A DNA stretch of 64,000 nucleotides from Microcoleus sp. Aus8_D1 (GCF_036702645.1 NZ_JAUBUO010000016.1:28186-92185), one strand, 5' to 3'. Positions 877 to 49,713 are shown, counted from the first letter of the stretch. Notes: generated by a model from the letters alone, not told the origin. Numbers and translations: made by a program.

Positions 877-943
877 TAGAAACCGGGTTTTTATCGAGAT
901 TAAAGGCTCGAATCGAGTATTTTCTCCAAAAACCCGGTTTCTG
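877..943. repeat. MITE-like hairpin element, family A (AGAAACCGGGTTTTT ... AAAAACCCGGTTTCT termini, ~67 bp)
   Basis: Seven copies in the window, in both orientations. Confidence 0.8.
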
Positions 944-993
944 ACTGCCCGTGCATCCCAGACAAACCAGCAAACAAAAATTAGAAAAAACCT

Positions 994-1287
994 ATGCAAC
1001 CGATCCGACAAGGCGACGTAATTCTCACCCCGGTACAGCAAATCGCAGGAGACAAAAAACCTCACCTCACCCTCGCCGAAGGTGAAGTCACGGGACATTC
1101 TCACCGCATCATTGAGGGACAAGCTGAACTTTACGAAAAAGACGGTACTCTGTACTTGCGAGTGCTTTCGCCCACAGCTTTATTGAGTCACGAAGAGCAC
1201 CGCGCGATCGCCATTCCTGAAGGTAATTGGATGGTGCGAATTCAGCGGGAATACGAGCCACAAGGTTGGCGGTATGTCTCAGACTAA
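994..1287 (+). CDS. Small hypothetical protein (97 aa), overlaps start of next gene by 14 nt (ATGTCTCAGACTAA)
   Basis: Clean ORF, protein-like composition, translational-coupling-type overlap with 1274..2410. Confidence 0.4.
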   Translation: MQPIRQGDVILTPVQQIAGDKKPHLTLAEGEVTGHSHRIIEGQAELYEKDGTLYLRVLSPTALLSHEEHRAIAIPEGNWMVRIQREYEPQGWRYVSD

Positions 1288-2410
1288 GGTTAAAAAACTT
1301 ACGCCAGCACAAGAAACTCAGATTCCAGTTTATCGCGAAAAGTGGAGGGCGAGATCGCTTTCCACAGGCCCGATCGCTCGATCGCACGCTGCGGAAACCA
1401 TTAAACTAGCTTACAGGGCGATCGGCTTCCCAGCACCAGAAATCATTTTTGTCGATCGTCCTTACCAAGCTGCGAATATCATCGCCAGCCACGCAGACAA
1501 ACCGAGAAGTCACCTCCGCAGCCAATTAGAAAGCAAACTGCGCTGCGAACTCGAAAAACAACTGCTAAGTTGTCTGCGCGGACAACTAGAAAGCCAGCTA
1601 AAACGTCAGCTACAAAATCAACTCGAAAATGAACTTTACACCCAACTGCAAAGCCAACTGTGGAGTCCCCTGCGCGAGCATTTAGCGATGGAAATAGCGA
1701 GCAAATTACCGAACGATTTGAGCGGACAGCGGGCGCGATATTTGCAGTACGCCCATCTCAACAAACAACTAGATAATTGCATTCAACCAGAGTTATGGGC
1801 TGGTAGCGGCAGTTTGTTAGATTTTTGCATTTCCGTGTTGAATTGCACCCACTCCTACGGCAATATCTGGACAATCTTTCAATCCCTTGTTAAGACTTGC
1901 GGCTGGATTTTTCCCTATGACAAAGTTTGTGTTGTGTGCGAAAAGCCGATCGTACTTTCCGCAGACAGCAACCACCGCCTCCACGCAGAAGCAGCACCAG
2001 CCGTACAATTTGCCGACGGTTTTGCAATTTACGCCTATCACGGCGTGATTTTACCCGAATGGTACGGCCGCCTGCACCCCCACGAGTGGCAGTCTAAATG
2101 GATACTCAAGGAACACAACGCAGAGGTTCGGCGGGCGTTAATTCAGGGCATCGGGTGCGATCGTATTTGTCAAGAACTAGCAGCCACAGAATTAGACACT
2201 TGGCAGGAATATACCCTATTAAAAATGGATTTTGAGGACGATTTCGATACCGCTGGGAACCCATTACCAGTTGTTTTGTTAAAAATGACCTGTCCGAGCA
2301 CAGGATTCATTCATGCGCTGCGAGTGCCTCCTGATGTGCGATCGGCTAAAGAAGCAATTCGCTGGGTAAATTGGGGAATAGAGCCTGACGAATTTTCTGT
2401 GCAAACTTAA
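1274..2410 (+). CDS. Paralog family protein: unique N-terminal region plus the shared C-terminal domain
   Basis: C-terminal ~175 aa alignable to 2..544 and 2580..4691 (VCVVCEKP...HAEAAPAVQFADGF...MTCPSTGFIHALRVPPDVRSAKEAIRWVNW). Confidence 0.65.
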   Translation: MSQTKVKKLTPAQETQIPVYREKWRARSLSTGPIARSHAAETIKLAYRAIGFPAPEIIFVDRPYQAANIIASHADKPRSHLRSQLESKLRCELEKQLLSCLRGQLESQLKRQLQNQLENELYTQLQSQLWSPLREHLAMEIASKLPNDLSGQRARYLQYAHLNKQLDNCIQPELWAGSGSLLDFCISVLNCTHSYGNIWTIFQSLVKTCGWIFPYDKVCVVCEKPIVLSADSNHRLHAEAAPAVQFADGFAIYAYHGVILPEWYGRLHPHEWQSKWILKEHNAEVRRALIQGIGCDRICQELAATELDTWQEYTLLKMDFEDDFDTAGNPLPVVLLKMTCPSTGFIHALRVPPDVRSAKEAIRWVNWGIEPDEFSVQT

Positions 2411-2460
2411 AACTCCCCAACCCTGTTTAACAAGTACAGTCCTCGACTCACCAAGATCCA

Positions 2461-2527
2461 AGAAACCGGGTTTTTTCGTTAATCTGCCGGCTGCATCGAA
2501 TAATCTTCGTAAAAAACCCGGTTTCTG
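2461..2527. repeat. Family A hairpin element
   Basis: agaaaccgggttttttcgttaatctgccggctgcatcgaataatcttcgtaaaaaacccggtttct. Confidence 0.8.
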
Positions 2528-2579
2528 GCCACCCGTGCGTAAGTCCTAGTCTGATATTCTCCTAATTTACAACAATTTT

Positions 2580-4691
2580 ATGTCAGAACAACAACCAAAA
2601 CCATCGATAACTTTCAACAGCTTTGCAGACTGGTGCTTGCACAAAGATAGCCTTTGTGAAGCAGCCAAACATACAGTTGAGGAACTGTTAAAGTGGGCGG
2701 GCACTTCTGACATTAATGAAGCGAACCAGATACTATCAAGTAAGAATAAACTAGACCTGCATGGCAATAAAATATCAGACCTCGCACCCCTGCAATCTTT
2801 GACTCATTTAGTTTATCTGGATCTGCATGGCAATAAAATATCAGACCTCACACCGCTGCAATCTCTGACTAATTTGACTTCGCTGTCTCTAAACCACAAT
2901 CAAATATCAGACCTTACATCCCTGCAATCTCTCACGAATTTGACTTCTCTGACTCTGTACAACAATAAAATATCAGACCTCACACCGCTGCAATCTCTGA
3001 CTAATTTGACTTCGCTGTCTCTAGACCACAATCAAATATCAGACCTCACATCCCTGCAATCTTTGACTAATTTGACTTCTCTGACTCTGGGCGAAAATAA
3101 AATATCAGACCTCACACCCCTGCAATCTTTGACTAATTTGATTTTGCTGTTTCTGAACCGCAATAAAATATCAAGCCTCACACCACTACAATCTCTCACG
3201 AGTTTGACTTCTCTGACTCTCGGCCACAATCAAATATCGGACATCACACCCCTACAATCTTTGACTAATTTGACTTTTCTGTCTTTGGGGCGCAATCAAA
3301 TATCAGACATCACGCACTTGCAATCTCTGACTAATTTGACTCGTCTTAATCTGGGCCAAAATCAAATATCAGACATCACAGACTTGCAATCTCTGACTAA
3401 TTTGACCGATCTGGTTCTCGATAGCGATCAAATATCAGACATCACGCACTTGCAATCTCTGACTACTTTGACTCGTCTTAATCTGGGCGAAAATCAAATA
3501 TCAAACATCACATTCCTGCAATTTCTGACTAATTTGACCGATCTGGAACTGCGCGAAAATCAAATATCAGATATAACATCCCTGAAATATCTGACTAATT
3601 TGACTTATCTGAATTTGGCAAACAATCCAATATCAGATATCGCACAGCTACAATATCTCACTCGTTTGAAGGATTTGACTTTAAACCTTACATCCCAACA
3701 CCAAGCTATCATCGAAATTTGCCGTCAAAAGTGGGGAATTCTCGCCAACTCTACCGAACCAATAAAGCACTCCAAAGCCTCAAATGCCCTTAAAACAGTC
3801 TGCGATTGTCTGGATTTAAAAACCCCAGAAATAACTTTTTGCAGTAGCCCGCATGAAGCGTACTTGCGATTAGAAAGGTCTAAACAAAAAGATAATGAGT
3901 TTAAAATACAACTCGATCGACGGCTCGATTCTGCTTGTTTTCCATTTACATTAATAACAGAATTATGGTTGGGACTTTCACGATCGCTCGAATGGGAAAG
4001 ACAGCTAGAACAACAATTGAAATCGATATTCCCCGACTTGTGGCGCGACTATCGGAGATACTCAACAATGTCGATCGTTACTCCAAAATACTTGGCTGAA
4101 GATCTAGCTATGGCTGAATTCTGTGTTTCTGCTTTGGGCATGATTCTTAAACCAGAGTCAGAAAAATTTTTTGAATCTCTAAAGCAGCTTTTAGTAGAAT
4201 GCGGCTGGATTTTTGCGTTTGAGAATGTCTGCTATGTGTGCTCGCGCCCCATCAAACTTTCCCTCGATCGCGAATACCGCCTCCATGCAGAAGGGGAAAG
4301 CGCGATCGAATTTGCCGACGGCTACAAAATCTATTCATATCACGGTGTAACATTACCTGAAAAATACGGACAAATTCACCCCAAAATTTGGGAAGCAAAA
4401 TGGCTTTTAGAGGAAGAAAATGCTGAACTCAGGCGAGTATTAATTCAAGGTATTAGTTATGCTAGAATTTGCTCCGAATTGCAAGCAACCGAATTAGATT
4501 CGTGGCAAGAATACACTTTACTACAAATCGAAAATGCTGATGTTGAGCCGATTCATCTGTTAAAAATGACTTGTCCGAGCACGGGATTCATTCATGCGTT
4601 GCGAGTGCCGCCGGATCTGACATCCGCCCGCGAGGCAATTCGCTGGGTAAATTGGGACATTGACTCAGACGAATTTTCCGTGCAAACTTGA
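2580..4691 (+). CDS. Leucine-rich-repeat protein (~20 tandem 22-aa LRRs, consensus NKISDLTPLQSLTNLTSLxL) fused to the shared C-terminal paralog domain
   Basis: 66-bp periodicity visible in DNA 2750..3660; internalin-like LRR consensus; C-terminal 175 aa match the paralog domain. Confidence 0.8.
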   Translation: MSEQQPKPSITFNSFADWCLHKDSLCEAAKHTVEELLKWAGTSDINEANQILSSKNKLDLHGNKISDLAPLQSLTHLVYLDLHGNKISDLTPLQSLTNLTSLSLNHNQISDLTSLQSLTNLTSLTLYNNKISDLTPLQSLTNLTSLSLDHNQISDLTSLQSLTNLTSLTLGENKISDLTPLQSLTNLILLFLNRNKISSLTPLQSLTSLTSLTLGHNQISDITPLQSLTNLTFLSLGRNQISDITHLQSLTNLTRLNLGQNQISDITDLQSLTNLTDLVLDSDQISDITHLQSLTTLTRLNLGENQISNITFLQFLTNLTDLELRENQISDITSLKYLTNLTYLNLANNPISDIAQLQYLTRLKDLTLNLTSQHQAIIEICRQKWGILANSTEPIKHSKASNALKTVCDCLDLKTPEITFCSSPHEAYLRLERSKQKDNEFKIQLDRRLDSACFPFTLITELWLGLSRSLEWERQLEQQLKSIFPDLWRDYRRYSTMSIVTPKYLAEDLAMAEFCVSALGMILKPESEKFFESLKQLLVECGWIFAFENVCYVCSRPIKLSLDREYRLHAEGESAIEFADGYKIYSYHGVTLPEKYGQIHPKIWEAKWLLEEENAELRRVLIQGISYARICSELQATELDSWQEYTLLQIENADVEPIHLLKMTCPSTGFIHALRVPPDLTSAREAIRWVNWDIDSDEFSVQT

Positions 4692-4757
4692 AAGCAAGCA
4701 GCAGCAATATAATTTCCGATTGTTAGTTCATGAGGATGATTTTAGGAGTTCTGATTT

Positions 4758-5321: not shown

Positions 5322-5334
5322 TTTAATAAGCCTC

Positions 5335-5660
5335 GCGCCGGACACGGCAGTGCCGTTTCCCTACTCGATTATGTTGTTAAAAGCAGAACTCCACGCCGGA
5401 CGCGGCAGTGCCGTTTCCCTACCCGATTATGTTGTTAAAAGCAGAACCCTACGCCGGACACGGCAGTGCCGTTTCCCTACCCGATTATGTTGTTAAAAGC
5501 AGAACCCCACGCCGGACGCGGCAGTGCCGTTTCCCTACCCGATTATGTTGTTAAAAGCAGAACCCTACGCCGGACACGGCACTGCCGTTTCCCTACCCGA
5601 TTATGTTGTTAAAAGCAGAACCCCACGCCGGACATGGCAGTGCCGTTTCCCTACAGAAAC
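5335..5660. repeat. Tandem direct repeat, ~60-bp unit x ~5.5 (cgccggacacggcagtgccgtttccctacccgattatgttgttaaaagcagaaccccA)
   Basis: Read directly; units abut with no spacers; a few point differences between copies. Confidence 0.9.
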
Positions 5661-7087: not shown

Positions 7088-7285
7088 CCCAAAATCCTGT
7101 AGGGGCGGGTTCACCAACTATCTATGAAACCCACAAACAATCTCATAAACCCGCCCCATCCACGCCATTATTTACATCAACATTTTACCAATAAATTCAC
7201 CGTACATTTTTATTGTTGGTGGGTGGGGGCGGGTTTATGAGCTCATTTATTTTTACCATAAATTGTTGGCGAACCCGCCCCTACC
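7088..7285. repeat. MITE-like element, family B (~195 bp, TIR GTAGGGGCGGGTTCACC ... GGCGAACCCGCCCCTAC), inserted between transporter genes C and D
   Basis: Near-identical full copy at 22162..22368; partial copies at 594..690, 17545..17650, 47700..47775. Confidence 0.8.
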
Positions 7286-9494: not shown

Positions 9495-9761
9495 GGTTTT
9501 CTTGCCTTTTTTGTAGGTTTGTCCTTGATTTTTTGATTAATGATTCTTGACTGTTGACTCTTAGCTGTTATCTTAGTGCCGATCGCTCAACTGCCATAAT
9601 AATATTGGTTCTATCGTTCGGACTTCAGTCTTCTTTAAAGACTGAGGAACCGTTTTTCGATAGCGAGGAATTCAGTTCTCTTACAAAGGTTAAGGACTGA
9701 AGTCATGACTGCGAACCAAATTGCAGTTATTTTACCGGACTTGATCTTAGCTTTTAGCTAA

Positions 9762-9873
9762 CAACTGACAACTGCCAACTGACAACTGACAACTGACAAC
9801 TAACAACTGACAACTGCCAACTGCCAACTGACAACTGACAACTGTCAACTGACAACTGTCAACTGACAACTGT
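9762..9873. repeat. STRR heptamer array (CAACTGA/CAACTGC/CAACTGT x ~16)
   Basis: Read directly; same heptamer family again at 52833..52947. Confidence 0.9.
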
Positions 9874-9876
9874 TAG

Positions 9877-10722
9877 TTATTTGCCTTGAGAGGGAGCAAT
9901 CTTTTGCTGCAACCACGCCATCAGGCGATCGAGCATCAAACCAACCGCCCCAATGTAGAACACCGCTAATAGAATTTCACTGATGTAGTTTTGCTGGTAA
10001 GCATTCCAAATAAAGAAGCCAATACCTGTAATCCCCGACATCACGATTTCTGCTGCAATAATCGCCAGCCAAGCCAAACCGATCGCAATTCTCAATCCGG
10101 TGAAGATATAAGGAAGCGCCGACGGAAACAAGATATTGATGTAATATTCCTTCTGAGTCAGTTGCAGCACTTTCGCTACGTTATTGTAATCGTCGGGAAT
10201 TTGACGGACACCTTCAGCCGTGTTGATCAAAATCGGCCAAACTGAGGTAATAAAAATCACGAACAAAGCAGCAGGTTCGTTTTGTTGCAATGCAGCTAGG
10301 GCGATGGGAACCCAAGCCAGAGGCGCCACCATCCGCAAGAACTGGAAAATCGGGTCTAAAGCCTTGTTTAAAAAGGGATTCGTACCTACCAGAACCCCGA
10401 CGCTAATGCCCACAGCGGCCGCGAGAGTGTAGCCTTTTGCCACCCGCTCCAAACTAGCCAAAGTCTGCCAAAATAAGCCGACTCCGTAGGTTTTGGAGTT
10501 CATGAAAGGATACATCAACAAAATCCGCGTCCGTTCATCCGTCCAAACGCTAGTCGGAGGTGGCAACTTGATGATTCCAGTACCCGAGAGGAATTGCCAA
10601 ACGAACAGAAATCCCAAAAGTCCTAAAATTGGCGGCAATATATTGGCGGAATTCTTCTTCCAAAACTCGCCAAGGACTCCTTGGACATCGACTCCGCCTC
10701 TCCGATTTGTGCTGACAGCCAT
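9877..10722 (-). CDS. nrtB/cmpB: Nitrate/bicarbonate ABC transporter permease (NrtB/CmpB type)
   Basis: 281 aa, multiple TM segments, BPD-transport permease signature region (AAEIVMSGITGIGFFI). Confidence 0.85.
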   Translation of the reverse strand: MAVSTNRRGGVDVQGVLGEFWKKNSANILPPILGLLGFLFVWQFLSGTGIIKLPPPTSVWTDERTRILLMYPFMNSKTYGVGLFWQTLASLERVAKGYTLAAAVGISVGVLVGTNPFLNKALDPIFQFLRMVAPLAWVPIALAALQQNEPAALFVIFITSVWPILINTAEGVRQIPDDYNNVAKVLQLTQKEYYINILFPSALPYIFTGLRIAIGLAWLAIIAAEIVMSGITGIGFFIWNAYQQNYISEILLAVFYIGAVGLMLDRLMAWLQQKIAPSQGK

Positions 10723-13044: not shown

Positions 13045-13262
13045 TTGGTTCGAGCGTTCCGAATGCGAGTCCTTGATGGATGCGGACGCTCAGTCCTCAG
13101 GAGCGAACCTTTTTTGTTCGAGCGTTCCGAATGCGAGTCCTTGATGGATGCGGATGCTCAGTCCTCAGGAGCGAACCTTTTTTTGTTCGAGCGTTCCGAA
13201 TGCGAGTCCTTGATGGATGCGGACGCTCAGTCCTCAGGAGCGAACCTTTTTTGAATGCGGAA
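13045..13262. repeat. Tandem direct repeat, ~72-bp unit x 3, each ending in a T6-7 run; immediately 3' of the ATPase gene
   Basis: Unit gttcgagcgttccgaatgcgagtccttgatggatgcggacgctcagtcctcaggagcgaacctttttt read three times. Confidence 0.9.
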
Positions 13263-13267
13263 TCCAG

Positions 13268-18094: not shown

Positions 18095-18097
18095 AAC

Positions 18098-18589: not shown

Positions 18590-18611
18590 AATTTTATTCC
18601 CTGTTGCTAAG

Positions 18612-22161: not shown

Positions 22162-22368
22162 CCGTAGGGGCGGGTTCACCGAAATCTCGAACGCAAATCC
22201 AACAATCTGATAAACCCGCCCTGCCCCCGCCCAATTTTACATCAACATTTTATCCAATAAATTAAGGGTAGATTTGTATTTGCGATCGGGTGGGGGCGGG
22301 TTTACGAGATGATTCATTTTCGCCATAGAGGGTTGGCGAACCCGCCCCTACGCGGATTGCGGTTTTCG
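22162..22368. repeat. MITE-like element, family B, full copy
   Basis: About 85 percent identical over ~195 bp to 7088..7285, same 17-bp terminal inverted repeats. Confidence 0.8.
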
Positions 22369-28136: not shown

Positions 28137-29108
28137 ATGTCCCCAACCACATCTGCCCCTTCCCGAACCGTCCGCATCGGTTCTCGCAAAAGCCAACTCG
28201 CCCTCGTTCAAACCCACTGGGTGCAAGCAGAGCTACAGAAACACTTCCCGGAACACACTTTTGAAGTCCACACCATGTCCACCCAAGGGGACATAATTCT
28301 TGATGTCGCCCTCGCTAAAATTGGCGATAAAGGACTTTTCACCAAAGAATTAGAAACGGGAATGCTGAACAACGAAACGGACTTTGCCGTTCATTCCCTC
28401 AAAGATTTGCCTACCAATTTACCCGAAGGTTTAATTTTAGGATGCGTCACCGAACGGGAAAATCCCGCTGACGCCCTCGTAGTTCACTCCAAGCACAAAG
28501 ACAAGCAACTCGACACCCTCCCAGAAGGTTCCGTAATCGGCACTTCTTCCCTGCGCAGGCTGGCTCAACTGCGGCACCATTTCCCTCATTTTGTATTCAA
28601 AGATATTCGCGGCAATCTCAATACTCGACTCGCTAAATTAGATGATGGCGGTTACGACGCGATTATTCTAGCAGTCGCCGGACTCGAAAGATTGGGAATG
28701 GGCGATCGCATCCACCAAATTATCGCTCCTGAAATCTCCCTCCACGCCGTCGGACAAGGTGCTTTGGGCATCGAATGCCGCGCCGGAGACACAGAAATCA
28801 TGGCAGTAATTAAAGCTCTCGAACACTCCGAAACCGCCCAAAGATGTTATGCTGAACGCGCATTTCTGCGGGAATTAGAAGGCGGCTGTCAAGTACCCAT
28901 CGGCGTCAATACCAAAATAGAAAACGGTCAATTAACCTTAACCGGCATGGTATCCAGTCTCGACGGCCAGCGATTCGTCAAAGATACTGTTTCCGGCGCA
29001 GCCGAGACTGCTGAAATGCTGGGAATAGACCTCGCCCACCGCCTGCGCGCCCAGGGAGCCAGTGCAATTTTAGAGGAAATATTTGTCGAAGTTCAACGCG
29101 GTTCATAA
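28137..29108 (+). CDS. hemC: Porphobilinogen deaminase (hydroxymethylbilane synthase)
   Basis: [18 protein letters not shown], Tx[10 protein letters not shown], dipyrromethane cofactor Cys region ([10 protein letters not shown]). Confidence 0.9.
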
Positions 29109-29305
29109 ATGCGATCGGCATCTATTTGTCAATGCTTTGAGACCCGAAACATCGCCTTTTGTAAAATAAAAATAATTGGCGGTTTTCTTTTGCTTTCACA
29201 GGTACAATAGCAGTCTGATTGTAGATTTTAGATAGATGGTGATTTAAAATAAAATTGCCGATTTCACAAATATCTGACTAATTTAGGACGCTCCGCACGG
29301 GTGTT

Positions 29306-29375
29306 GAGAAACCCGGTTTATGGATGGATGCCTTGCTGTAAAGCCCAGGATTTTTCGTAGAAACCGGGTTTCTTT
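29306..29375. repeat. Family A hairpin element (variant termini)
   Basis: gagaaacccggtttatgg...tagaaaccgggtttcttt. Confidence 0.65.
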
Positions 29376-29455
29376 GCATCACCCCGATAGTCAATATACC
29401 AACCCAAAATCTACAATCAAACCTCGACAATAAACCAGCAACCTATTTCAGGGAA

Positions 29456-30295
29456 ATGCAAAATATGAGCGCTCAGGAAACTCAATTAAAGCTAGAATTG
29501 GCAAAATTTCAGCAACTTTATCGCAAAATGCAGGCAGATCGAAAAGCTTTGCAGCAGCAATTGAAAGAGTTTAAAAGCCAGACGGGAAACTTTTCCGATG
29601 TAGTCGAGCAAGTCTTGCCCTCGGTAGTTTCAGTTTACGTGATGGATTGGGATACAGGAGAAGAGATTTCCTCCGGAAGCGGCTTTTTTGTATCCCCCGA
29701 CATAATTGTCACTAACTATCACGTTGTCGAAGATATTGCCGATGAAGATTACTTCTACGAGGAAGATGAAGTCGAACAGGTTTTAGTCGAAACTCACGAC
29801 GGAAAGTTGAGAATGGCAGAGGTGGTATTTACTGGTAATGCGGAAGAGGATTTAGCATTGCTTTTGATTACTGGTTTTATCATCGATCCGAAAACAGGAG
29901 AACAAGTAGAATCTCCCGAAGAATATCCTCCCCTAGAGTTGTCTTTTGATGTGAAAGTTGGCGATCGAGTAATTGCTGTGGGAAATCCTTTGGGCCAGTT
30001 GGCGGCAACGGTAACTCAGGGTATTATTAGTGAAATTCGCGAACCCGATGAGTATGAGGAAGGCGACGAAGATGATGATGATATTGCTGAGGTGAAGGTG
30101 TTGCAAACTGATGCGGCGATTAATCCGGGAAATTCGGGCGGCCCGTTGATTAATATGGCCGGTCAAGTTGTTGGGGTGAATACGTGGGGGTTGGAAGATG
30201 CTGATAGTATTAATTTGGCGATCGCCTCCGTTGCTTTGGATGACTTTTTAGCTGGATTTGAAGAAACTTTTGAGGGTGAGCCTGATGAGGAATAG
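29456..30295 (+). CDS. Trypsin-like serine protease domain protein (S1C/HtrA-like catalytic domain, no PDZ) with acidic insert
   Basis: His region TNYHVV, Asp region EEDLALL, Ser region GNSGGPLIN; N-terminal coiled coil. Confidence 0.75.
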   Translation: MQNMSAQETQLKLELAKFQQLYRKMQADRKALQQQLKEFKSQTGNFSDVVEQVLPSVVSVYVMDWDTGEEISSGSGFFVSPDIIVTNYHVVEDIADEDYFYEEDEVEQVLVETHDGKLRMAEVVFTGNAEEDLALLLITGFIIDPKTGEQVESPEEYPPLELSFDVKVGDRVIAVGNPLGQLAATVTQGIISEIREPDEYEEGDEDDDDIAEVKVLQTDAAINPGNSGGPLINMAGQVVGVNTWGLEDADSINLAIASVALDDFLAGFEETFEGEPDEE

Positions 30296-41507: not shown

Positions 41508-41574
41508 CAGAAACCGGGTTTTTGGAGAAAATCCTTCGCAGTAGTCCACCGATTAGGTAAAAACCCGGTTTCTT
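41508..41574. repeat. Family A hairpin element (opposite orientation)
   Basis: Interior is reverse-complement-like of the 40638 copy. Confidence 0.8.
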
Positions 41575-41756
41575 TGGCCTTAATGCGTAATACCAAATCC
41601 GGGTTATTCATCCCGTTATTCTTAAGTCCGCGTAGGCGGACTTCGTTTGTATAGACGCGGTTTCAACCGCCGAGTTTTATCGGGTATGAAACACTGTTGT
41701 ATGATTTTTGATAGTTGGTATAAGCGAACAATATTTTTCTGACATCCCCAAGCATT

Positions 41757-42101
41757 TCAGCGCCGAGATTGTCGAGTAACTAAACCGTAAATAAAAGCAT
41801 CCTTAAATGCTAAAAAAATCAACAAAACATGAAGTAAAAATTGCTGAAATCCCAAAATAGGATCTAGCCGCCAACCTTGAAACAATAAAATAAAACCGCT
41901 GACTGGCAACACCCCAACAGCCATGATGCCTTGAATGATGTAAAGTATTATGCCTGTACTGCCGATAATTTGCGATCGCATTCCCGAATTTACTATAGCT
42001 GTCACTAGATAAGCCACCGCCAAAGCTATATCAACTAAGCCCAGAATTGACATCCAATTGATTGCTACATTTATCATCCCTCGAACCCTCTTAACAAACA
42101 C
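41757..42101 (-). CDS. Small integral membrane protein (3 TM helices)
   Basis: Hydrophobic segments throughout; 114 aa. Confidence 0.5.
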   Translation of the reverse strand: MFVKRVRGMINVAINWMSILGLVDIALAVAYLVTAIVNSGMRSQIIGSTGIILYIIQGIMAVGVLPVSGFILLFQGWRLDPILGFQQFLLHVLLIFLAFKDAFIYGLVTRQSRR

Positions 42102-42122
42102 AGTCCAGGACGCACGGGCGGT

Positions 42123-42187
42123 CAGAAACCGGGTTTTTCGCGTCTCCTTCGTTGTAGTCCACAGTAAGGGTCAAAAACCCGGTTTCT
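42123..42187. repeat. Family A hairpin element (opposite orientation)
   Basis: cagaaaccgggtttttcgcgtctccttcgttgtagtccacagtaagggtcaaaaacccggtttcttt. Confidence 0.8.
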
Positions 42188-42214
42188 TTGGGCTGCACGC
42201 CAAGTCATGAAAAC

Positions 42215-42455
42215 AAAAAAAAATCGCGCGCCGCCACTGGTTGCCCCTTCGTAAACCCCTCAGGACTAGACTGCTCAACTCCAGCGGGGCCGGGTACTGT
42301 GGGTCGTTGGCTTCGCAGAAGCCACACCGCAATACCAACAGTACCCGAAGCCCCGCACAGTCAAGAGCAGGCTAGTGATGCTTGTCTAGACTAAGCGCAA
42401 GGACGGCGATCCACCGCCCGGATTGCAAGGCTGTTTACCAATTTAAACGCGCGAT
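42215..42455. ncRNA. Candidate structured RNA or long imperfect palindromic element (~240 bp, GC-rich)
   Basis: Nested inverted repeats: AAATCGCGCG/CGCGCGATTT outermost, GACTAGAC/GTCTAGAC, CAGCGGGGCCGGGTACTGT/ACAGTACCCGAAGCCCCGC, inner GGCTTC-GCA-GAAGCC; no ORF support. Confidence 0.3.
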
Positions 42456-42463
42456 TTATTAAG

Positions 42464-44155
42464 TTATTGACACTGACGTGCGTGTTGCATTCGCAGCGCT
42501 AAAATGTGTTCGCAAGGGCCTTTGTACAGCTTGTTTTGCTGGTGCCAATTACAAGTACATTCTGCCTCAATTATACGCTCATCGGCATCAATTGTCAAGT
42601 GCGGATTCAAGGTTTTTTCCCGGTCTGTGACACTGCCTCGCACGGTGAATGCACCGGAAGAATCGCTGGTAAAATCGGTCACTTGTACCGCATTTTCACT
42701 CAAGAAAAGAGTTGCTTTTGATTCTCTTTCGTTGGCAAATCTCAAACGTTCTAAGGGCAAAGGTTCTCGGCTCAATTCCCGCACTCGGTACACCTGTTTG
42801 TTCAAATCGTAAATTGCCCTTCCCGCTTGCGTGTAGGCACTCAATGCACCCAACACTGACGCCCGATTTAACTTCAGTCTGGCGGCCAAACTGTCAGCAG
42901 TTTCTACCCAATTTTCTTTGAGTGCATCAAAGATTAATTGCTGCGTCCAAGCATCTACATCGGCGCGCGGGGCCATTAAATCAAAGTTACCGGATTGCGA
43001 CCAATCATTGGCACTCCATCCCGACAATCCTAGGGTAAATGACATATCGCCCAAATCGGCGACGTAAAAAGAAGGCATTCCCGTTCCTAACAGGTGAACT
43101 GTGAACTTTTTGGCGACGGGAATCAGTCTTTCGAGAATGTGAAGGCGGCGCCTTCCCCAAACTCGAATTTCCTGTGCTTGCGAACCAGTATAGGGCGATC
43201 GCGCGCAAACAACTTCCGTACCCCACGGATCGAAAATCACCCGCACCGGTTCCCCCGGATTCAGGATGTAGCGCATACTGCGCGGGCCTTGTTTCTCCTT
43301 GTGGCGGCGCAAAACAAAACAAATATTGTGGATGTCCATCGGGTGCAAATCAAACCGCACCGCCGGCAAAGACATCGCCGAACTAACTTGCAAAAATCCT
43401 CTCACCCAACTGTCAGGTAAGTCTATTTTGACTTCTTTAAAAGTCTCTTCATGCACCGTTTGAACTTCAAAACCCGAGGGATCTACTTGCAGCGAAGTAG
43501 TCTTGTAACTGCGGATTTTTTGAAATTCATCATAAAGCGCTGCCGAGTAGTCGATATTAGTCGTGCCGCAAGCAAACTCGCTGATATTTTTAAACACTTC
43601 GTAGCTGGCGCCGAGGCGGCCGTAACTCGACTCATCCTGACTGAAACACTCGAAAAATACCTCATCGGGATGTACTGTAATCACCGGATCGAGGACAAAC
43701 CAAGCATCGCGGTCTTTTTGATAAATGTAGTCAAAGTATTGCTGTTGGGCGCGATAAAAAGGTGCCAGACGTTGGTGTTGACGCCGAGTTAACTCGTTGA
43801 ACTCTGCTTGCAGCGGCTGAACTTTTTGGGCAACTTTTTGTTGGCGGCAGGCGATTAATTGCCAATCGATTTCTTGCTGTTGGGCTGCCCATTCTTTATA
43901 AGCTGTTTTGTCTTTGGGTTTGAAGCGCATATCGGAAACCACGACATCGTGCAAAGCGCTAATTGCTTCGCGAAAAGCGACATTTTGACGCAATTCTCCG
44001 ATAAAATAAGTGGGCGGACGTTTGGTGTCGGGAGAAAAAGACATTTGCGTGCTGCCGCCGCTTTCAGCAACTTCGGTATTTCCTTTGTAAGAGTAGTTAA
44101 ATTCCATAATATTTTTTTCAACTAGGTTCGTAGTGAGGACTTCAGTCCGCATCAA
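42464..44155 (-). CDS. SWIM zinc-finger domain protein (563 aa)
   Basis: C-terminal CxCx(n)CxH: AECTCNWHQQNKLYKGPCEHILAL; partner of the upstream WGR protein (E. coli YehQ-like arrangement). Confidence 0.75.
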   Translation of the reverse strand: MMRTEVLTTNLVEKNIMEFNYSYKGNTEVAESGGSTQMSFSPDTKRPPTYFIGELRQNVAFREAISALHDVVVSDMRFKPKDKTAYKEWAAQQQEIDWQLIACRQQKVAQKVQPLQAEFNELTRRQHQRLAPFYRAQQQYFDYIYQKDRDAWFVLDPVITVHPDEVFFECFSQDESSYGRLGASYEVFKNISEFACGTTNIDYSAALYDEFQKIRSYKTTSLQVDPSGFEVQTVHEETFKEVKIDLPDSWVRGFLQVSSAMSLPAVRFDLHPMDIHNICFVLRRHKEKQGPRSMRYILNPGEPVRVIFDPWGTEVVCARSPYTGSQAQEIRVWGRRRLHILERLIPVAKKFTVHLLGTGMPSFYVADLGDMSFTLGLSGWSANDWSQSGNFDLMAPRADVDAWTQQLIFDALKENWVETADSLAARLKLNRASVLGALSAYTQAGRAIYDLNKQVYRVRELSREPLPLERLRFANERESKATLFLSENAVQVTDFTSDSSGAFTVRGSVTDREKTLNPHLTIDADERIIEAECTCNWHQQNKLYKGPCEHILALRMQHARQCQ

Positions 44156-44300
44156 ATCCGGTTCGTAGTGAGGACTTCAGTCCGCATCAAATTCAGGTTC
44201 GTAGTGAGGACTTCAGTCCGCATAAAATCCAGTTCGTAGTGAGGACTTCAGTCCGCATCAAATTCAGAGGACTAAAGTCCTCACTACGAACACTTTATCA
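44156..44300. repeat. Tandem 36-bp direct repeat x4 (GTTCGTAGTGAGGACTTCAGTCCGCATCAAATYCRG) ending in an inverted partial copy that forms an ~18-bp hairpin
   Basis: Read directly; related single copies of GTAGTGAGGACTTCAGTCC at 37290..37312, 52395..52450, 60405..60440. Confidence 0.85.
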
Positions 44301-44369
44301 AATCTGCCTCCTACATTTAGCATCGATCGCCCTTTCCGACATCCCAATTCCACAAATCTTAACTAAAAA

Positions 44370-47300
44370 TCAACTCCTCACCTCAACCACAGGCTTTACC
44401 TGAATTGGCAAATCTATCTGAGGATAACGCCGGCGAATCTTCAGCATAGTCTCAATAGCCGCTGCTTTATCTGCGATCGCAATTGTAGCCGATTGCCTGG
44501 TTAAAATATCCGCAACAATCCCGGCCGCCGCCTCACTCTTTTGCGCCTCCGCATCCAGAAACGCAAAAACTCGGCGCTTCGCCACCCTTCCCTGATTCAC
44601 CCGCGACAAAACCGCGACCAAAAAAGGCGCTAATTCCCGCAATTTCTCAGGATTGCTTGCAGCATAACTCTCCAAATAATTAGTAGCAAACAACTGCATA
44701 TCCGCCGACGGATGCTCGCTAAACTTCAGCAAATAATCGTGTCCGGACTCATCCTGAAAATAGCGAATTACCAAATCTCTGCCGAATTGCCGCACATCTT
44801 CCCGAATGCTGTCGCAAAGACTAACCATAATTTCCGGAGTCCAATCTGCCTCAGTCAATTCCGTGCGAAAAATCCTGGCGGCAAATTCCCGCGAATCATC
44901 CCATTTTGCCTCCAGCAGCCGCACGGCTGACAGCATTTCTTGAGAATTGGCGCGAATCGCATCTAGCTTTTGCAAAAACATTTGTCTCGCAGATTCTCGC
45001 ACCGAAAAAATCTCGTGACTCGCCAGCTTGACAATCTCAATTGTATCAAACTCCGCCGCCCAATTCGTGCTATTTTTCACCAGCACAAATCCGCCTAATT
45101 CCTGCGCGACAGCAGACTTAGCTTTCAGCAGCAGCCAAGTCTTGTCCTTATCCATCGCCGACATCCACCCCGGAATATCTTGCCGCAGCAAATCGAGCAA
45201 ATAACTGTGTACTCCTTCCTGTCTTTCCGGTATCAGCAACACATCAATCAATTCCCCAGCAACCAGCGCTGCAAATTCGGGATATTCGGCGGCCAAACGC
45301 CGAATTACTGGTTTAATAGAATTGCGGATGTCGGCCAAAGCATTGACTGCCATTCCTACTATCAAACTTGTCTGAGAACTTGTTAGCGATTCGTCCGGTA
45401 ATTGACCGAATAACCTGATGCCAATTCTTCGAATTTGTTCGTAGGGCGACGCAATTAGCGATTCGATTAATTCAGACGGCAAATCAGCCGCACCGATTTC
45501 GTGATTCAGCAAAATTCTCGCCCCCAATTCCTGAACTTCCGGCACCGGATGCCGCAGCAAATCCAGGATAACTCCCAATCCCAAACTCCGCAGTTGTGGG
45601 GTAAAGTTGAGCAGGAGCGTATCGGCGATGTCTTTGGCTACAATTGAGGTATGAGTCGGAATGAATTCTGTTGGTTGAAATGTTAATAAATGGGCTATCA
45701 GTTTGCCAATTAGTAGCCTGACGGTTGCAGGGCTGAGAATTGATGAGTTGAGCAACCTGCGGGCAAATTGCCTGGTGTCTGCGTACAAGCTGGTTACTAG
45801 AGTAACAATTAATTCTGTATCTGATAAAATGCGATCGCGCTGTTCGTCAATCCAGTCAAAAGCTTGGGTTCTCGCTGGCACAAATATGCAGTTAACCAGC
45901 CCTAGAATTACTTCGCGGTGGGCTGGATATCGATGATATCCGTTTTGGACTGCCAAATTGAAACCCAGTTCGGCTGTAACTTCGTAAGGTACAGCAATCA
46001 GTTTGATTGCAGTGTCAGCATCTATCCCAGCTAAAAATTGCGGACAAGCTTTCAGCGCTTTCACAGCGAAATGGTGCACCGGGCGGCAGTTGCTGGCTAA
46101 TAACAATTGCAACAGCGCATCGGGATATTGTTCCCAAAGTTCGGGAAAAGCTTCTTCTCGCACTTCCGGCTCCGGATCTCCTGGTTTGTAACCTTCTCTG
46201 CAGCGCCACGCTTGCGAATTGGTAAAATAAGCATAGCGCGGGCTGTTTTCGTAGAGAATGCGGTTAAATGTTAAGTAACCGGCAAAGATATCCCATTCAG
46301 ATGAATAACTGATTTTATTCCAATTAGAGAAATCCCATTGATAATCAGCATCGCTAGTCCCCTTAGAGCGAATCCACTGATAATAAGTGATCTGCAAAAC
46401 TGCTTCGGCATCGCTATCAACGTATTGCAGCAAAATGCTGACAGCCATTTTTACATAATCAGCATCGCTTTCTTCGCCTAATTGTTTGAGAGTGCGCCAC
46501 ACCCTTTTAATTAAGTAGCTGCGCGTACTGCTGCTGTAGGCAATTCGGCAATTGGGACTCTGCATTTCCTCTAGAAAACTGCTGTTTGCAGTGTATTCAT
46601 TTTTGCCTGTTTGTTCGTTGTACGCCCAGTCTTGCTTTGTCAGATACCCGCCACCAGGAATGTTAATATACCAAGCATTGCTGCGGTACATGGCTTTTTC
46701 GTCCTCAAAGCGGCGGGCCACAATCGCAAATACTTCGGCGTCGCGACGGTATTCCGCCATTTTGAAGATGTGGCGGATTTGTTTAAAATAATGGGGTTTT
46801 AGCGGTGCAGTTTTTAAGATATCCAGTAATGCCGATCGCACAAACTGACTGTCAATCTGGTAAAGTCGATCGAGAACCGCAAAACGACTGCTATCTTCCG
46901 TGTCGAGTTCAACTTTCAATGCTGCTGAAAATTCCTCAGCGCTGCCGTTTGCAGCTAATTCGCGCAACTGTGGGGGTAGCAATTCTATTATGGACGATTC
47001 TAGGTGCGATCGCGCTTCCTCATCCGCCAACTTCAGCAATCCTTCAAAAGCAATTCTCCTCACAAACTCCGCAGTCGCAGCATCCCGATACAGCCGAGTC
47101 AGCGCCTCCACAGCGCCCTCGCCGCCGCACCAACCCAAACTCCAAGCAATACAGTAGTCTCGCAGCGGTTCTCCCGTACCGATTAAGTTAATCAGTCCCG
47201 GCCCGGCTTCGGTAATTTTCAGCTCCCCAGCGCGCCAAATAGCCCGTTCCAGAGGCCATTTAGGATTGCCAGCGCCGGCAAGACGGTTCAAAATAGCTTG

Positions 47301-47594
47301 TTGGCGCGTCTCGGCGCGAGGAAGTTCTGGCGCGGGTGCAACATCAGCAACGCTGGCTGCTTCCTGATAGCCTTTCTTTACCTTTTCCGCGACTAGCTTG
47401 TCGAAAACTTTTTCAGCTTTGGCCAAGGGCACTGGTGTATCGGTTTTTGTGCCTTCCTGGAGATTGGCGCCCCGCCGTCCGTAGCGAAAGTTGACCGAGT
47501 AGAGGTTTTCGCCGGTTTGACACAAATCGACTTCGTATACTTTATCCGATCGACCGTCCTGAAAATAAAGAGCCGTCCGCTTAATCAATTTCAT
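44370..47594 (-). CDS. WGR-domain protein with long HEAT/ARM-like repeat region (MolR-like, 1074 aa)
   Basis: N-terminal WGR: SDKVYEVDL...YSVNFRYGRRG...EKVFDKLVAEKVKKGY; remainder alpha-helical repeats. Confidence 0.75.
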   Translation of the reverse strand: MKLIKRTALYFQDGRSDKVYEVDLCQTGENLYSVNFRYGRRGANLQEGTKTDTPVPLAKAEKVFDKLVAEKVKKGYQEAASVADVAPAPELPRAETRQQAILNRLAGAGNPKWPLERAIWRAGELKITEAGPGLINLIGTGEPLRDYCIAWSLGWCGGEGAVEALTRLYRDAATAEFVRRIAFEGLLKLADEEARSHLESSIIELLPPQLRELAANGSAEEFSAALKVELDTEDSSRFAVLDRLYQIDSQFVRSALLDILKTAPLKPHYFKQIRHIFKMAEYRRDAEVFAIVARRFEDEKAMYRSNAWYINIPGGGYLTKQDWAYNEQTGKNEYTANSSFLEEMQSPNCRIAYSSSTRSYLIKRVWRTLKQLGEESDADYVKMAVSILLQYVDSDAEAVLQITYYQWIRSKGTSDADYQWDFSNWNKISYSSEWDIFAGYLTFNRILYENSPRYAYFTNSQAWRCREGYKPGDPEPEVREEAFPELWEQYPDALLQLLLASNCRPVHHFAVKALKACPQFLAGIDADTAIKLIAVPYEVTAELGFNLAVQNGYHRYPAHREVILGLVNCIFVPARTQAFDWIDEQRDRILSDTELIVTLVTSLYADTRQFARRLLNSSILSPATVRLLIGKLIAHLLTFQPTEFIPTHTSIVAKDIADTLLLNFTPQLRSLGLGVILDLLRHPVPEVQELGARILLNHEIGAADLPSELIESLIASPYEQIRRIGIRLFGQLPDESLTSSQTSLIVGMAVNALADIRNSIKPVIRRLAAEYPEFAALVAGELIDVLLIPERQEGVHSYLLDLLRQDIPGWMSAMDKDKTWLLLKAKSAVAQELGGFVLVKNSTNWAAEFDTIEIVKLASHEIFSVRESARQMFLQKLDAIRANSQEMLSAVRLLEAKWDDSREFAARIFRTELTEADWTPEIMVSLCDSIREDVRQFGRDLVIRYFQDESGHDYLLKFSEHPSADMQLFATNYLESYAASNPEKLRELAPFLVAVLSRVNQGRVAKRRVFAFLDAEAQKSEAAAGIVADILTRQSATIAIADKAAAIETMLKIRRRYPQIDLPIQVKPVVEVRS

Positions 47595-47919
47595 TGCAGT
47601 TTGTCACCATCGCTAAGCTTGTCGGGGCGAGTCCGCGCCCGCAATTCTAACATCCCGCAGACTATCTCATATCCTGGACGATCGATCGACCATAATATCC
47701 TGGCCGGGGCGGGTTTACAGGATCTTGGATTTATGCCCGATATCTGGGCGAACCCGCCCCTACCATATTATGGGCCAAGCGTTGCGGAGGGAATCTGCCC
47801 CCTCTCCCATTCTCCCTCTCTCTCGCCTTTGTCCACCCAATGTAAAAATATGTTGCAATATTTTTACTGCTGTGTTAAGTTTAGTTACATAAGGTTGAAA
47901 TACAACGAGGTTTCTGGTT

Positions 47920-48063
47920 ATGGAAAACAAAGACGCAAAAGTAGGCTTCACAGAGTTCGCTGAAACCTGGAACGGTCGTTTGGCAATGCTGGGCTTCGTT
48001 ATCGGTCTGGCTACGGAATTCCTGACCGGTCAAGGCATTCTCGCTCAAATCGGTTTGATGTAA
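47920..48063 (+). CDS. hli: High-light-inducible protein (HLIP / one-helix CAB-like protein), 47 aa, below the ORF-track size cutoff
   Basis: Manual translation MENKDAKVGFTEFAETWNGRLAMLGFVIGLATEFLTGQGILAQIGLM with the ExxNGRxAMxGF chlorophyll-binding motif. Confidence 0.8.
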   Translation: MENKDAKVGFTEFAETWNGRLAMLGFVIGLATEFLTGQGILAQIGLM

Positions 48064-48109
48064 TCAGCTTAAGTCTATAGAATATACAATAACTGTAATT
48101 TGTGGCGGG

Positions 48110-48192
48110 CGATCGACCCCCTTACAAGTGCGATCGCCCGCCCGCCAATAAGTCCCCTTCATTGATAGTGAAGGGGCTTTTGCATTTTTTAT
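48110..48192 (+). terminator. Two stem-loops after hli: GGCGGGCGATCG...CGATCGCCCGCC, then CCCCTTCA-ttgatag-TGAAGGGG followed by CTTTTGCATTTTTT (rho-independent terminator)
   Basis: Read directly. Confidence 0.55.
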
Positions 48193-48267
48193 TAAAAAAT
48201 CCAACCCATGGTACAATCAAAAAAATTTTCCGTCTCAATATTTATCGTCAGTCCAACTCCAGCTTTC

Positions 48268-48480
48268 CTAAGCAATTCCTACAGAATCCAAAATCCTCAC
48301 TTTAGGAGTTAAAGCTGGAAGCTTCACCAAACCGTCCCGTTTGTGAGTCCGCAGGCTGTTACCTAAAATCATCTCCGACAGATCCGGCATTTCCTGCCAG
48401 CAGCGCGAGCAGAACCAATAAACGCGATTGTGGCGAGCGTGGCGTAACAATTGAGAGGAGCAACAAGGGCAACTATTCAT
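48268..48480 (-). CDS. Small Cys-rich (zinc-ribbon-like CPCC...CSRC) hypothetical protein
   Basis: ORF with two CxxC pairs. Confidence 0.35.
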   Translation of the reverse strand: MNSCPCCSSQLLRHARHNRVYWFCSRCWQEMPDLSEMILGNSLRTHKRDGLVKLPALTPKVRILDSVGIA

Positions 48481-48587
48481 GATATTTTAAACCTTCTTTA
48501 AGATATGGATCGATAAACCAATTCATTACAGAGATTGATGAATGTCGCTGCATCTCTACTCCAGACACAACAATAAAAAAGCTCTTT

Positions 48588-48833
48588 TCACTCCAAACTT
48601 TGAGGGTCTGGCAAGTAGCACTTTTGGAGGCTCAACAGCAACACCACAATCAAAAGCTGAACGCCCCAAGGGGCCCAAGAGAAACCCCAAATAAAACAAC
48701 CCAGTCCGCCCAAAGCCACAAGTACAAAAATATCTTGAGAGGTTTGCCAGTAAATCCAGACGGCTGCCAGAGAAACTATCAGTAGCAAAATGTAAGCTGA
48801 GGGCATTGTCGTCTTCTCCCAAGGTGTCGGCAA
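48588..48833 (-). CDS. Small hypothetical membrane protein (2 TM)
   Basis: ORF with two hydrophobic helices. Confidence 0.35.
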   Translation of the reverse strand: MPTPWEKTTMPSAYILLLIVSLAAVWIYWQTSQDIFVLVALGGLGCFIWGFSWAPWGVQLLIVVLLLSLQKCYLPDPQSLE

Positions 48834-49027
48834 ACAGTCAGGATCGATCCCTGACGATGTGCTTAAACTTAAAACTTAAACCTGAAGAACTTATGAAGAT
48901 GAGCAAGTTGTTACAAAACAAAATAAACTCCTGCCAGATTATATTAAACCTAAAAATCGAGCAGGAAGATTTTGTTTATTTCATTATAGAATTCAGCGCG
49001 ATCCTCTTCGAGGGCTGCGCTAACGAC

Positions 49028-49420
49028 CTATGCTTCCTCCCAGCCCAAAGCTTCAGCCACCTGAGTAGCCAAAGACATCGGTTCAAAAGGCTTAGCAATC
49101 ACACTCACCACCCCCAAATCCGCGAACATCCGCCTGTCGCTAGCGAGAGCCTTAGCTGTCAATAAAATTACCGGAATGTGCTGGGTAGCATGATTAGCTT
49201 GTAACTGTTTAAAAGTAGTAGGCCCGTCTTGGTCGGGCATCATCACGTCCAAGAGAATAGCATCAGGCTGTTCAGCAAGAGCCTTAGCCACACCCTCGCG
49301 GCCAGAACTCGCGGTCAGCACTTCCCAGCCCCCCACCACCTCAAGACTGACTTGAGCGACTTCCCGAATATCTTCCGCATCGTCAATAACCAAGATGCGC
49401 TTAGCATTCAAAATTAACAT
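49028..49420 (-). CDS. Single-domain response regulator (CheY-like receiver); start reassigned to MLILNAKRILVIDD at 49420
   Basis: DD...D(57-equivalent LLDVMMPD)...T...K receiver signature; the upstream ORF extension runs through a MITE copy and is probably not coding. Confidence 0.8.
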   Translation of the reverse strand: MLILNAKRILVIDDAEDIREVAQVSLEVVGGWEVLTASSGREGVAKALAEQPDAILLDVMMPDQDGPTTFKQLQANHATQHIPVILLTAKALASDRRMFADLGVVSVIAKPFEPMSLATQVAEALGWEEA

Positions 49421-49643
49421 CTTTTTTAGGAATGAGAACTGATCACAGACTAGAGGCCAAATGTGAATGTTTTGTAAAGCAAACTGTTTTACCCGATCGA
49501 ACTTTACAGTAAAGCTACAAAACTGTAAAATTTTCCCACCCCAAAAATCCGCTTTTCGACCTCCGAGCGCGATTTTTGCCCGATCGCTGCCTCTAGATCC
49601 CTCTTTGGCAATAATGACAGTCCCGGACGCACTCGCGACTCCT

Positions 49644-49713
49644 CGAAACCGGGTTTTTTTTAGCATTTCAGCAGGCTGCAACGAAGTATTTAGGTAAAAA
49701 AAACCGATTTCTG
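49644..49713. repeat. Family A hairpin element (degenerate right arm) between HK and response-regulator genes
   Basis: cgaaaccgggttttttttagcatttcagcaggctgcaacgaagtatttaggtaaaaaaaaccgatttctg. Confidence 0.7.

Follow-up and report, generated by a model that had tools for sequence, protein, structure and literature searches.

The question raised by this locus is what kind of genetic entity is repeated seven times within 64,000 nucleotides of the genome of Microcoleus sp. Aus8_D1 (GCF_036702645.1, NZ_JAUBUO010000016.1:28186-92185; this whole stretch is referred to hereafter as the window). The initial annotation of this DNA had described a dispersed, intergenic hairpin of ~67 bp, which was thought to be either a MITE (miniature inverted-repeat transposable element) or a mobile hairpin resembling REP (repetitive extragenic palindromic) elements. 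Based upon sequence comparisons, we consider it probable (roughly 0.8) that the repeat is a ~110-bp non-coding MITE, which carries the ends and produces the 5-bp target duplication of an insertion sequence (IS) of the IS701 family. Save for a pair of unusually well-kept internal 15-bp palindromes, it is ordinary selfish DNA of Microcoleus-type cyanobacteria.

It is evident that the seven copies are real. The arm pattern AGAAACCGGGTTTTT, allowing up to two mismatches, matches the window 17 times where 0.23 matches are expected, none of 100 shuffled sequences reached this number, and 16 of the 17 matches pair up as the arms of seven cores. When the window was searched with an nhmmer profile, exactly the seven known copies, numbered here c1 to c7, were likewise returned, and they were confirmed to occur in both orientations (c3, c5, and c6 on the plus strand; c1, c2, c4, and c7 on the minus strand). 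The start coordinates given previously were correct to within 1 nt, and the intergenic placement holds as well, since all seven copies lie outside Pfam-supported genes. Both arms are perfect in five copies, while c3 carries a AGAAACCSGGTTTCT-arm variant and c7 is decayed. No open reading frame (ORF) of the element's own was found. Recurrence beyond the window, upon which the initial annotation had made its proposal depend, is also apparent: in a scan for the two-arm pattern, using one genome per species, at least 120 stretches match. From the scan loci, 208 copies were harvested, of which 119 are solo, although most of these were recovered via their arms and the sample is biased for this reason.

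What did require revision is the extent of the unit. The alignment of all copies that had been recommended with the initial annotation was performed on the window copies together with their flanks, and it revealed conservation reaching ~20-25 nt past each arm. Since the outer termini are also found in the window only where they adjoin cores, the unit must be ~107-113 nt long, with the AGAAACCGGGTTTTT/AAAAACCCGGTTTCT arms internal, rather than a ~67-bp element ending in the arms. It is composed of YAGGACTTACGCA(C), ~8 nt, an arm, 34-36 nt, the second arm, ~9 nt, and (G)TGCGTAAGTCCTR, such that its ends are the 13-bp inverted repeats YAGGACTTACGCA ... TGCGTAAGTCCTR. An alignment of 113 of the solo copies yielded the consensus TAGGACTTACGCAC-GGGTGGTC-AGAAACCGGGTTTTT(T)-~34 nt-(A)AAAAACCCGGTTTCT-TTGGTC..A-GTGCGTAAGTCCTG, beyond whose ends the information content is at background. 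There is also a second variant of the terminus, YAGTCCTGGACGCA, and the two assort freely. With up to three mismatches in 12 tolerated, a terminus could be recognized at 123 of the 244 ends, compared to 2 of 244 control positions. We also considered whether the outer flank might be an independent palindromic target or repeat, which was rejected, as it never occurs in the window without a core and is absent from empty sites.

Each 15-bp arm is itself a near-palindrome of the form 7+1+7 (ARAAACC-S-GGTTTYT), and the two arms are inverted with respect to each other and separated by 34-36 bp. In every window copy, the arms can pair as a stem of 14-16 bp around a loop of 33-39 nt, so the predicted hairpin stands, whereas its stem is not terminal and not every copy folds better than its shuffled counterparts. 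The folding z scores are clearly better than shuffles for c1 (-7.0) and c4 (-5.3), moderately better for c2, c3, and c5 (-2.3 to -3.4), and no better for c6 (-1.7) and c7 (-0.8). The interior is highly variable in sequence, with 161 distinct interiors among 178 perfect-arm cores, and its length is held tightly at 34-36 nt with no excess of folding energy (z ~0). In ~15% of copies, the interior appears to be flipped relative to the flanks, according to a flank classifier that is noisy because the flanks are quasi-palindromic.

The ends could be matched to a known IS by a full-text literature search, in which the tip GGACTTACGCA led to ISPlag1 of Planktothrix (PMC2464740). This IS belongs to the IS701 group, is 1306 bp long, encodes one 337-aa transposase, and has the published inverted repeat CAGGACTTACGCAAGCACGCTATATATAG, which starts CAGGACTTACGCAAGCACGC; short ISPlag1 remnants have been described as well (Christiansen et al. 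2008, PMC2464740). The outer 13 nt of the element are identical to the ISPlag1 tip at 13 of 13 positions (CAGGACTTACGCA). A copy of ISPlag1 is present on plasmid 1 of Planktothrix agardhii NIES-204 (ends at approximately L189:1348 and 2653, ORF 1522-2535), and its 337-aa ORF matches DDE_5/DDE_Tnp_1 in Pfam. Two relatives add the target duplication. An IS of Nostoc ATCC 53789, whose transposase is 61% identical, ends in CAGGACTTACGCAACTG and has ATAGT on either side as a 5-bp direct repeat. In a 1531-bp metagenomic IS, whose transposase is 66% identical, 10 copies show this tip, of which 4 have perfect 5-bp duplications and the others look like chimeric repeat assemblies. All three ISs share the 13/13-nt tip match as well as homologous 337-aa DDE transposases. 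The closest named relatives among plasmid annotations are listed as "IS701-like element ISAba11 family", and the element and ISPlag1 ends co-occur on Planktothrix plasmids. At least 10 copies of the 1531-bp IS, identical in their transposase, were encountered (L200-L209, from JGI metagenome 3300041964 and others); upstream of the transposase gene, the opposite strand encodes an 88-aa ORF. In addition, the same YAGGACTTACGCA...TGCGTAAGTCCT termini can be found surrounding unrelated cores (L141:274-363, L037:7339-7425, L018:1959-2136, and L162:1273-1394), one of which is a GGGTGGGCATTGCCCACCC hairpin. Accordingly, there appear to be several MITE families having ISPlag1-type ends. A candidate for the parent IS in the sampled DNA, suggested by arms lying ~1.4 kb apart in L090, was dismissed, since these arms flank ordinary genes.

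The check for target duplications proposed with the initial annotation was positive for the short element as well. Among 40 solo copies retaining both termini, the 5 nt abutting the termini form perfect repeats in 7 copies and repeats with one mismatch in another 6, whereas flank shuffling predicts 0.38 and 1.5, respectively (13 vs. 1.9 combined). A stricter first pass had found exact repeats of at least 5 nt in 4 of 22 copies, where 0.3 were expected. Evidence for insertion is also available from an all-against-all comparison of the loci, which yielded one informative trio: the site is filled in L063 (1024-1131) and empty in both L086 and L105, and the boundaries fall at the outer termini, not at the arms. 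At the right end of c6, homology to three Microcoleaceae genomes (two named Microcoleus and one metagenomic contig) resumes within ~5-15 nt, and homology between L001:2483 and L094:6134 breaks at the edge of a copy. Syntenic loci (L183/L185 and L192) were obtained with a protein anchor, without reference to the element, and match the window at ~85-92% identity. A decayed orthologous c7 resides in the Microcoleus PH2017 metagenome-assembled genomes (MAGs; L183/L185, with the copy at L183:3845-3949), while no copy was detected at this site in Microcoleus sp. bin38 (L192); an orthologous, more decayed c3 is present in bin38 (L192:20543-20616). The existence of these orthologs implies that c7 and c3 are old. 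Array copy number also varies between orthologous sites.

These observations separate the two alternatives that had been left side by side at the outset. The element is non-coding and shorter than 300 bp, has terminal inverted repeats that match those of an IS, is associated with a duplication of fixed length, and is polymorphic for presence and absence, all of which are the hallmarks of a MITE. The combination of IS-identical ends, the 5-bp duplication, and the filled and empty sites identifies it as a MITE and not as REP-like. The latter alternative would have the element be a pair of inverted REP sequences (a REPIN, or REP doublet forming a hairpin) mobilized as single-stranded DNA by a REP-associated tyrosine transposase (RAYT). 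Its appeal derives from the long, imperfect hairpin of ~110 nt, from the extragenic location and abundance of the copies, and from tandem clusters like those of the bacterial interspersed mosaic elements (BIMEs) of E. coli; Nostoc punctiforme is reported to have both REPINs and RAYTs (PMC3116915). However, REPINs duplicate no target, whereas the element has both 5-bp duplications and ends identical to those of a DDE IS, and no RAYT-like ORF turned up when all ORFs in 1.2 Mb were crudely scanned for HUH/Y motifs, which is a weak negative. We regard a REPIN as very improbable.

Despite the overall agreement with a MITE, several results run counter to it. The sequence common to the element and the ISs amounts to only 13 nt, the remainder being unrelated, and the difference of the interior indicates that the element is no simple internal-deletion derivative of these ISs. 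No ISPlag1-like transposase gene was detected by motif scan and tblastn in 1.2 Mb of sampled Microcoleaceae loci plus the window, nor was there any Microcoleus-named homolog among the 120 best matches; mobilization in trans in the source genome is, for this reason, presumptive. Furthermore, the empty sites in L086 and L105 do not contain a clean single copy of the target, with L086 having 8 unrelated nt in its place. Lastly, 42 of 122 solo copies with good arms (about a third) have no recognizable terminus at either end, and the arms are far better kept than the termini, whereas a simple MITE should show the opposite. Within the window, the arms match the consensus at 96-97% of positions, compared to 42-55% for the termini, 56-68% for the in-flanks, and 65% for the interior.

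Results of this kind raise the question of whether the 65-83-nt core, consisting of the two 15-mers, the interior, and a few bases on either side, might be a separate functional or mobile module that is carried by the MITE. Such a module could offer two sites at which a dimeric DNA-binding protein or a site-specific recombinase would bind, or it could be a very small cassette, mobile or convertible, that spreads, flips, swaps its interior, and forms tandem arrays on its own. Overall, the arms are 96-100% conserved compared to 30-68% for termini, in-flanks, and interiors, and their near-palindromic 7+1+7 form, the diversity of the interiors at a fixed length, the terminus-less copies, and the occurrence of the same termini around different cores would all suit a module of this type, as would the fact that the 15-mer arm is not present in the ISs examined. 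The tandem arrays consist of a ~83-nt unit (in-flank plus core) repeated inside one pair of termini. Individual loci are suggestive as well: the arms are in swapped order in L092:5302-5400, the arms of the orthologous L022/L093 copies are identical at 30 of 30 positions while the interior is ~53% and the flanks 88% identical, and nine consecutive right-arm bases have been replaced in both tandem units of L018. Nevertheless, the idea that the core is a MITE inside the MITE, making a target duplication of its own, had to be rejected, because no per-copy duplications flank it: among 119 copies there is 1 perfect 5-mer, and the covariation signal is only weak. No protein emerged as a candidate. 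Terminus-less copies likewise show greater divergence in the interior and in-flanks, which is what ageing alone would produce, and in the three orthologous pairs retrieved regardless of their arms, the arms have changed at a rate similar to that of the interior (9 of 90 vs. 13 of 108 positions). Moreover, the bias of a sample found mostly through its arms may itself inflate arm conservation. We therefore view an independent core module as doubtful. The same low standing applies to the more specific proposal that the arms are recognition sites for a recombinase or a nucleoid or regulatory protein, making the core a self-maintaining hairpin cassette nested in an IS701-type transposon shell, which we put forward as a tentative idea. 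Such a two-layer element would hold its arms perfect even as its interior was swapped, inverted, or made tandem, with MITEs serving as its carriers.

Arm conservation may have other sources. It may reflect ascertainment together with patchy exchange between copies. Alternatively, the arms may belong to a longer inverted repeat of an unsampled Microcoleus IS. Were a Microcoleus IS to end in CAGGACTTACGCAC, with AGAAACCGGGTTT in a long repeat, transposase binding would account for the conserved arms. An internal motif that outlasts the ends of its transposon does hint that there is a further layer to the element, be it the binding of a protein, recombination, or the processing of RNA, even if the evidence does not require one.

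When examining the distribution of the element, it is apparent that almost all of the matches listed in the two-arm scan are from Microcoleus, Tychonema, and other Oscillatoriales/Microcoleaceae, with further two-arm matches on plasmids of Planktothrix and Oscillatoria PCC 7112. Given seven copies in the window, it is plausible that there are hundreds genome-wide. No long match was found between the window and the 120 scanned genome loci. A single exact two-arm match was recorded in a contig that bears the label of an uncultured Chloroflexia MAG (L055:6129-6189), where the flanks are GC-rich and lack the MITE termini; this could be contamination, horizontal transfer, or chance. The 147 sites are divided into 119 solo copies and 28 arrays, the latter with 2-11 units, and ~87% of these sites are outside of crude ORFs in DNA that is 77% coding overall. 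Judging by intergenic length, 22 sites would be expected between convergent genes and 24 between divergent ones, whereas 31 and 14 were observed, respectively; the former class is thus mildly over-represented and the latter under-represented. Between co-directional genes, the core lies at a median of 55 nt from the stop codon upstream of it, and there is no bias in orientation relative to transcription (26 vs. 22).

A bias toward gene 3' ends is what might be expected if the element were retained mainly for a host RNA function, serving as a bidirectional terminator, a 3'-end stabilizer, or an RNase III target. Most copies fold stably, both strands would present an A-tract, CCGGG...CCCGG, and then UUUCU(UU), and, to our knowledge, cyanobacteria lack the termination factor Rho. 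Conversely, the same 3'-end enrichment is equally well explained by selection against insertions into promoters, and the unbiased orientation between co-directional genes offers no help to an RNA function. Intrinsic terminators have a GC-rich stem, a loop of 3-8 nt, and a U-tract immediately following the stem, whereas the element has a loop of 33-39 nt with its UUUCU(UU) lying within the stem; a consensus terminator scan of positions 40000-50000 makes no call on it, as its loop of ~35 nt would cause the scan to miss it. One copy also lies within what appears to be a kinase-regulator operon, another precedes a start codon by 24 nt, and arrays of up to 11 units would be unexpected for terminators. 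The distribution thus fits tolerance or selection at gene 3' ends and shows no sign of a strand-specific RNA function, and we consider retention for such a function unlikely.

The inverted repeats around a more variable segment of ~35 nt, together with the regular ~83-nt period of the arrays, could also call to mind a gene for a structured non-coding RNA or, where the units are tandem, a clustered regularly interspaced short palindromic repeat (CRISPR) array. There is no Rfam match in the window at the gathering score, nor any match on the element up to E=10 in positions 40500-42300, which hold c4-c6, and the absent strand bias and the interior folding z of ~0 are equally at odds with an RNA gene. 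Within an array, the interiors are near-identical and hence not unique spacers, which speaks against a CRISPR array. Neither an RNA gene nor a CRISPR-like array is seriously to be expected here.

Returning to the MITE, an ISPlag1-type transposase supplied in trans would cut at the 13-bp tips and insert the element into AT-rich intergenic DNA, duplicating 5 bp of the target. The internal inverted 15-mers make the element fold into a long hairpin. As the comparisons show, inserted copies decay, persist across species at orthologous sites, and are sometimes lost, and they can also multiply locally into tandem arrays of ~83-bp units. Any effect upon the host, be it on the formation of transcript 3' ends, through cleavage by RNase III, or through a protein that binds the 15-mers, would presumably be a side effect or a secondary gain. 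Now that the family can be recognized, along with its actual ends and the 5-bp duplication, hundreds of intergenic hairpins can be masked or labeled, and polymorphic copies can be used as strain markers in the large population-genomic data sets of Microcoleus.

The individual copies are placed as follows. The first, c1 (853-965, minus strand; core 878-942), has perfect arms and decayed termini, and lies ~310 nt 3' of a DUF6745 gene fragment (stop at 544) and 29 nt 5' of an ORF at 994-1287. Next is c2 (2437-2548, minus strand; core 2461-2526), which has perfect arms and the termini CAGTCCTCGACTCA ... TGCGTAAGTCCTA; it starts 27 nt past the stop codon of a DUF6745 paralog at 1274-2410 and ends 32 nt before a gene at 2580 encoding leucine-rich repeats and DUF6745. 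The initial annotation placed two copies right after the stop codons of paralogous genes, which is accurate for c2, but not for c1. In total, there are three paralogous genes with a C-terminal DUF6745 (2-544, 1274-2410, and 2580-4691), and the third is fused to ~16 leucine-rich repeats, visible as a 66-nt periodicity in the DNA at 2633-3724. The third copy, c3 (29284-29392, plus strand; core 29307-29373), has arms of the AGAAACCSGGTTTCT type; on one side of it is hemC, with its stop codon at 29108, and on the other a trypsin-like gene that starts at 29456. The HemC protein is identical to entries assigned to unclassified Microcoleus. The last, c7 (49618-49725, minus strand; core 49644-49712), is decayed, with one and two mismatches in its arms, and does separate a histidine kinase gene (49786-52386, minus strand, stop at 49786) from a gene encoding a response-regulator domain, as had been noted.

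The remaining three copies are clustered. Between the divergent NYN gene (39722-40222, minus strand) and an ORF at 40816-41160 lies c4 (40616-40726, minus strand; core 40639-40704), which has perfect arms and is 83% identical to c2 over 87 nt. In c5 (41486-41596, plus strand; core 41509-41573), both arms are perfect, the right terminus is ATGCGTAATACCA, and the left is unrecognizable; it is found between convergent ORFs, with its left end overlapping the last codons of an unsupported ORF (41237-41497). Finally, c6 (42101-42209, plus strand; core 42124-42187) has perfect arms and the left terminus CAGTCCAGGACGCA, and it is located 24 nt upstream of the start of a ycf66-like gene (42077) and downstream of a SWIM gene. 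Ragged gene ends in the window are thus partly explained by the copies, as c5 provides the stop codon of one ORF and c6 precedes a start codon by 24 nt. The surrounding 2.5 kb (39711-42217) includes the NYN gene, which encodes 166 aa, a ~137-nt inverted-repeat element (40362-40498), c4-c6, two small ORFs, and the ycf66-like gene, whose metagenome relatives have identities of only 36-59%. Most of this region is replaced in other Microcoleus genomes by unrelated sequence with a 263-aa NYN gene. The possibility that c4...c6 bound a composite transposon was rejected, as comparison to L192 reveals a replaced segment rather than a clean insertion.

Several other features of the window were observed in passing. 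An 878-aa homolog of the eukaryotic major vault protein is encoded at 30692-33328 on the plus strand (Pfam Vault 7.7e-64, MVP_shoulder 2e-52, and Vault_2/3/4); it is missing from the syntenic Microcoleus loci L183/L185 and L192, in which a glycosyltransferase gene is followed by at most a few short ORFs and then by the trypsin-like gene. A 465-aa reverse transcriptase gene (37334-38731, minus strand; RVT_1 in the syntenic loci) adjoins that of RNase III, its position is kept in L183 and L192, and its DNA is 95% identical to L192 compared to 87-91% for its neighbors, indicating that it is better conserved than they are. Among the other repeats is a 35-nt sequence in four tandem units, in place of which L183 has hicAB genes. 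There are also 68-nt and 54-nt tandem repeats of three units each, heptamer runs, runs with a 14-nt period, and GGGTGGGGGCGGGTTTA...CCCGCCCC hairpin elements. The coordinates of these repeat families are 44089-44265; 13045-13253; 62320-62481; 35201-35298 and 62512-62612; 9719-9914 and 52791-53000; and 7221-7284 and 22288-22351.

Lastly, the element can be compared to systems that are already known. The classical bacterial MITEs Correia/NEMIS (Neisseria), RUP (Streptococcus pneumoniae), and ERIC (enterobacteria) have terminal inverted repeats, short target duplications, strong hairpin potential, and persistence at orthologous sites, and some classical bacterial MITEs contain internal sites to which proteins bind or, once transcribed, are cleaved by RNase III. 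The three families are ~100-150 bp long, non-coding, and intergenic (reviewed in PMC3184786). In its size, intergenic and non-coding nature, inverted repeats, short duplication, hairpin, and persistence, the element is reminiscent of these. It differs in its IS family and duplication, in that its best-kept part is an internal pair of 15-bp palindromes, and in its tandem arrays of ~83-nt units at 28 of the 147 sites. ISPlag1 has the same terminal 13 nt, its relatives make the same 5-bp duplication, and it is encoded within the same host family, the Microcoleaceae. However, the 29-bp inverted repeat of ISPlag1 continues as AGCACGCTATATATAG, which is missing from the element, and a 1306-bp IS with a 337-aa DDE transposase is distinct from a non-coding element whose interior and 15-mers have no counterpart in the ISs examined. 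Like REPINs and BIMEs, the element is a hairpin of two inverted conserved segments with a less conserved spacer and is both extragenic and found in tandem clusters, whereas REPINs lack the terminal repeats of a DDE IS as well as a target duplication. Among cyanobacteria, a parallel is Nezha, an ISNpu3-linked MITE of Anabaena and Nostoc having terminal inverted repeats, direct repeats, a stable fold, and AT-rich sites (PMC3184786), with a 10-bp direct repeat in its reference copy (PMC6042816). The element resembles Nezha in all of the former respects, but Nezha is 130-170 bp long and its direct repeat is 10 bp instead of 5 bp, a distinction that is drawn from its description and not from its terminus sequence. 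The searchable literature contained nothing relevant describing this family or its arm sequence. Small dispersed repeats (SDRs) of 21-27 nt are reportedly found in the Nostocales, with those of Nostoc punctiforme, attributed to Elhai et al. (2008), said to be very small repeats nested in larger hairpin-containing repeats and to spread by a mechanism that is unknown. By this description, their behavior resembles that of the 15-mer or core module, from which they differ in size and host order. Taken against these systems, the family is new, and its kind, the MITE, is one that is already known.

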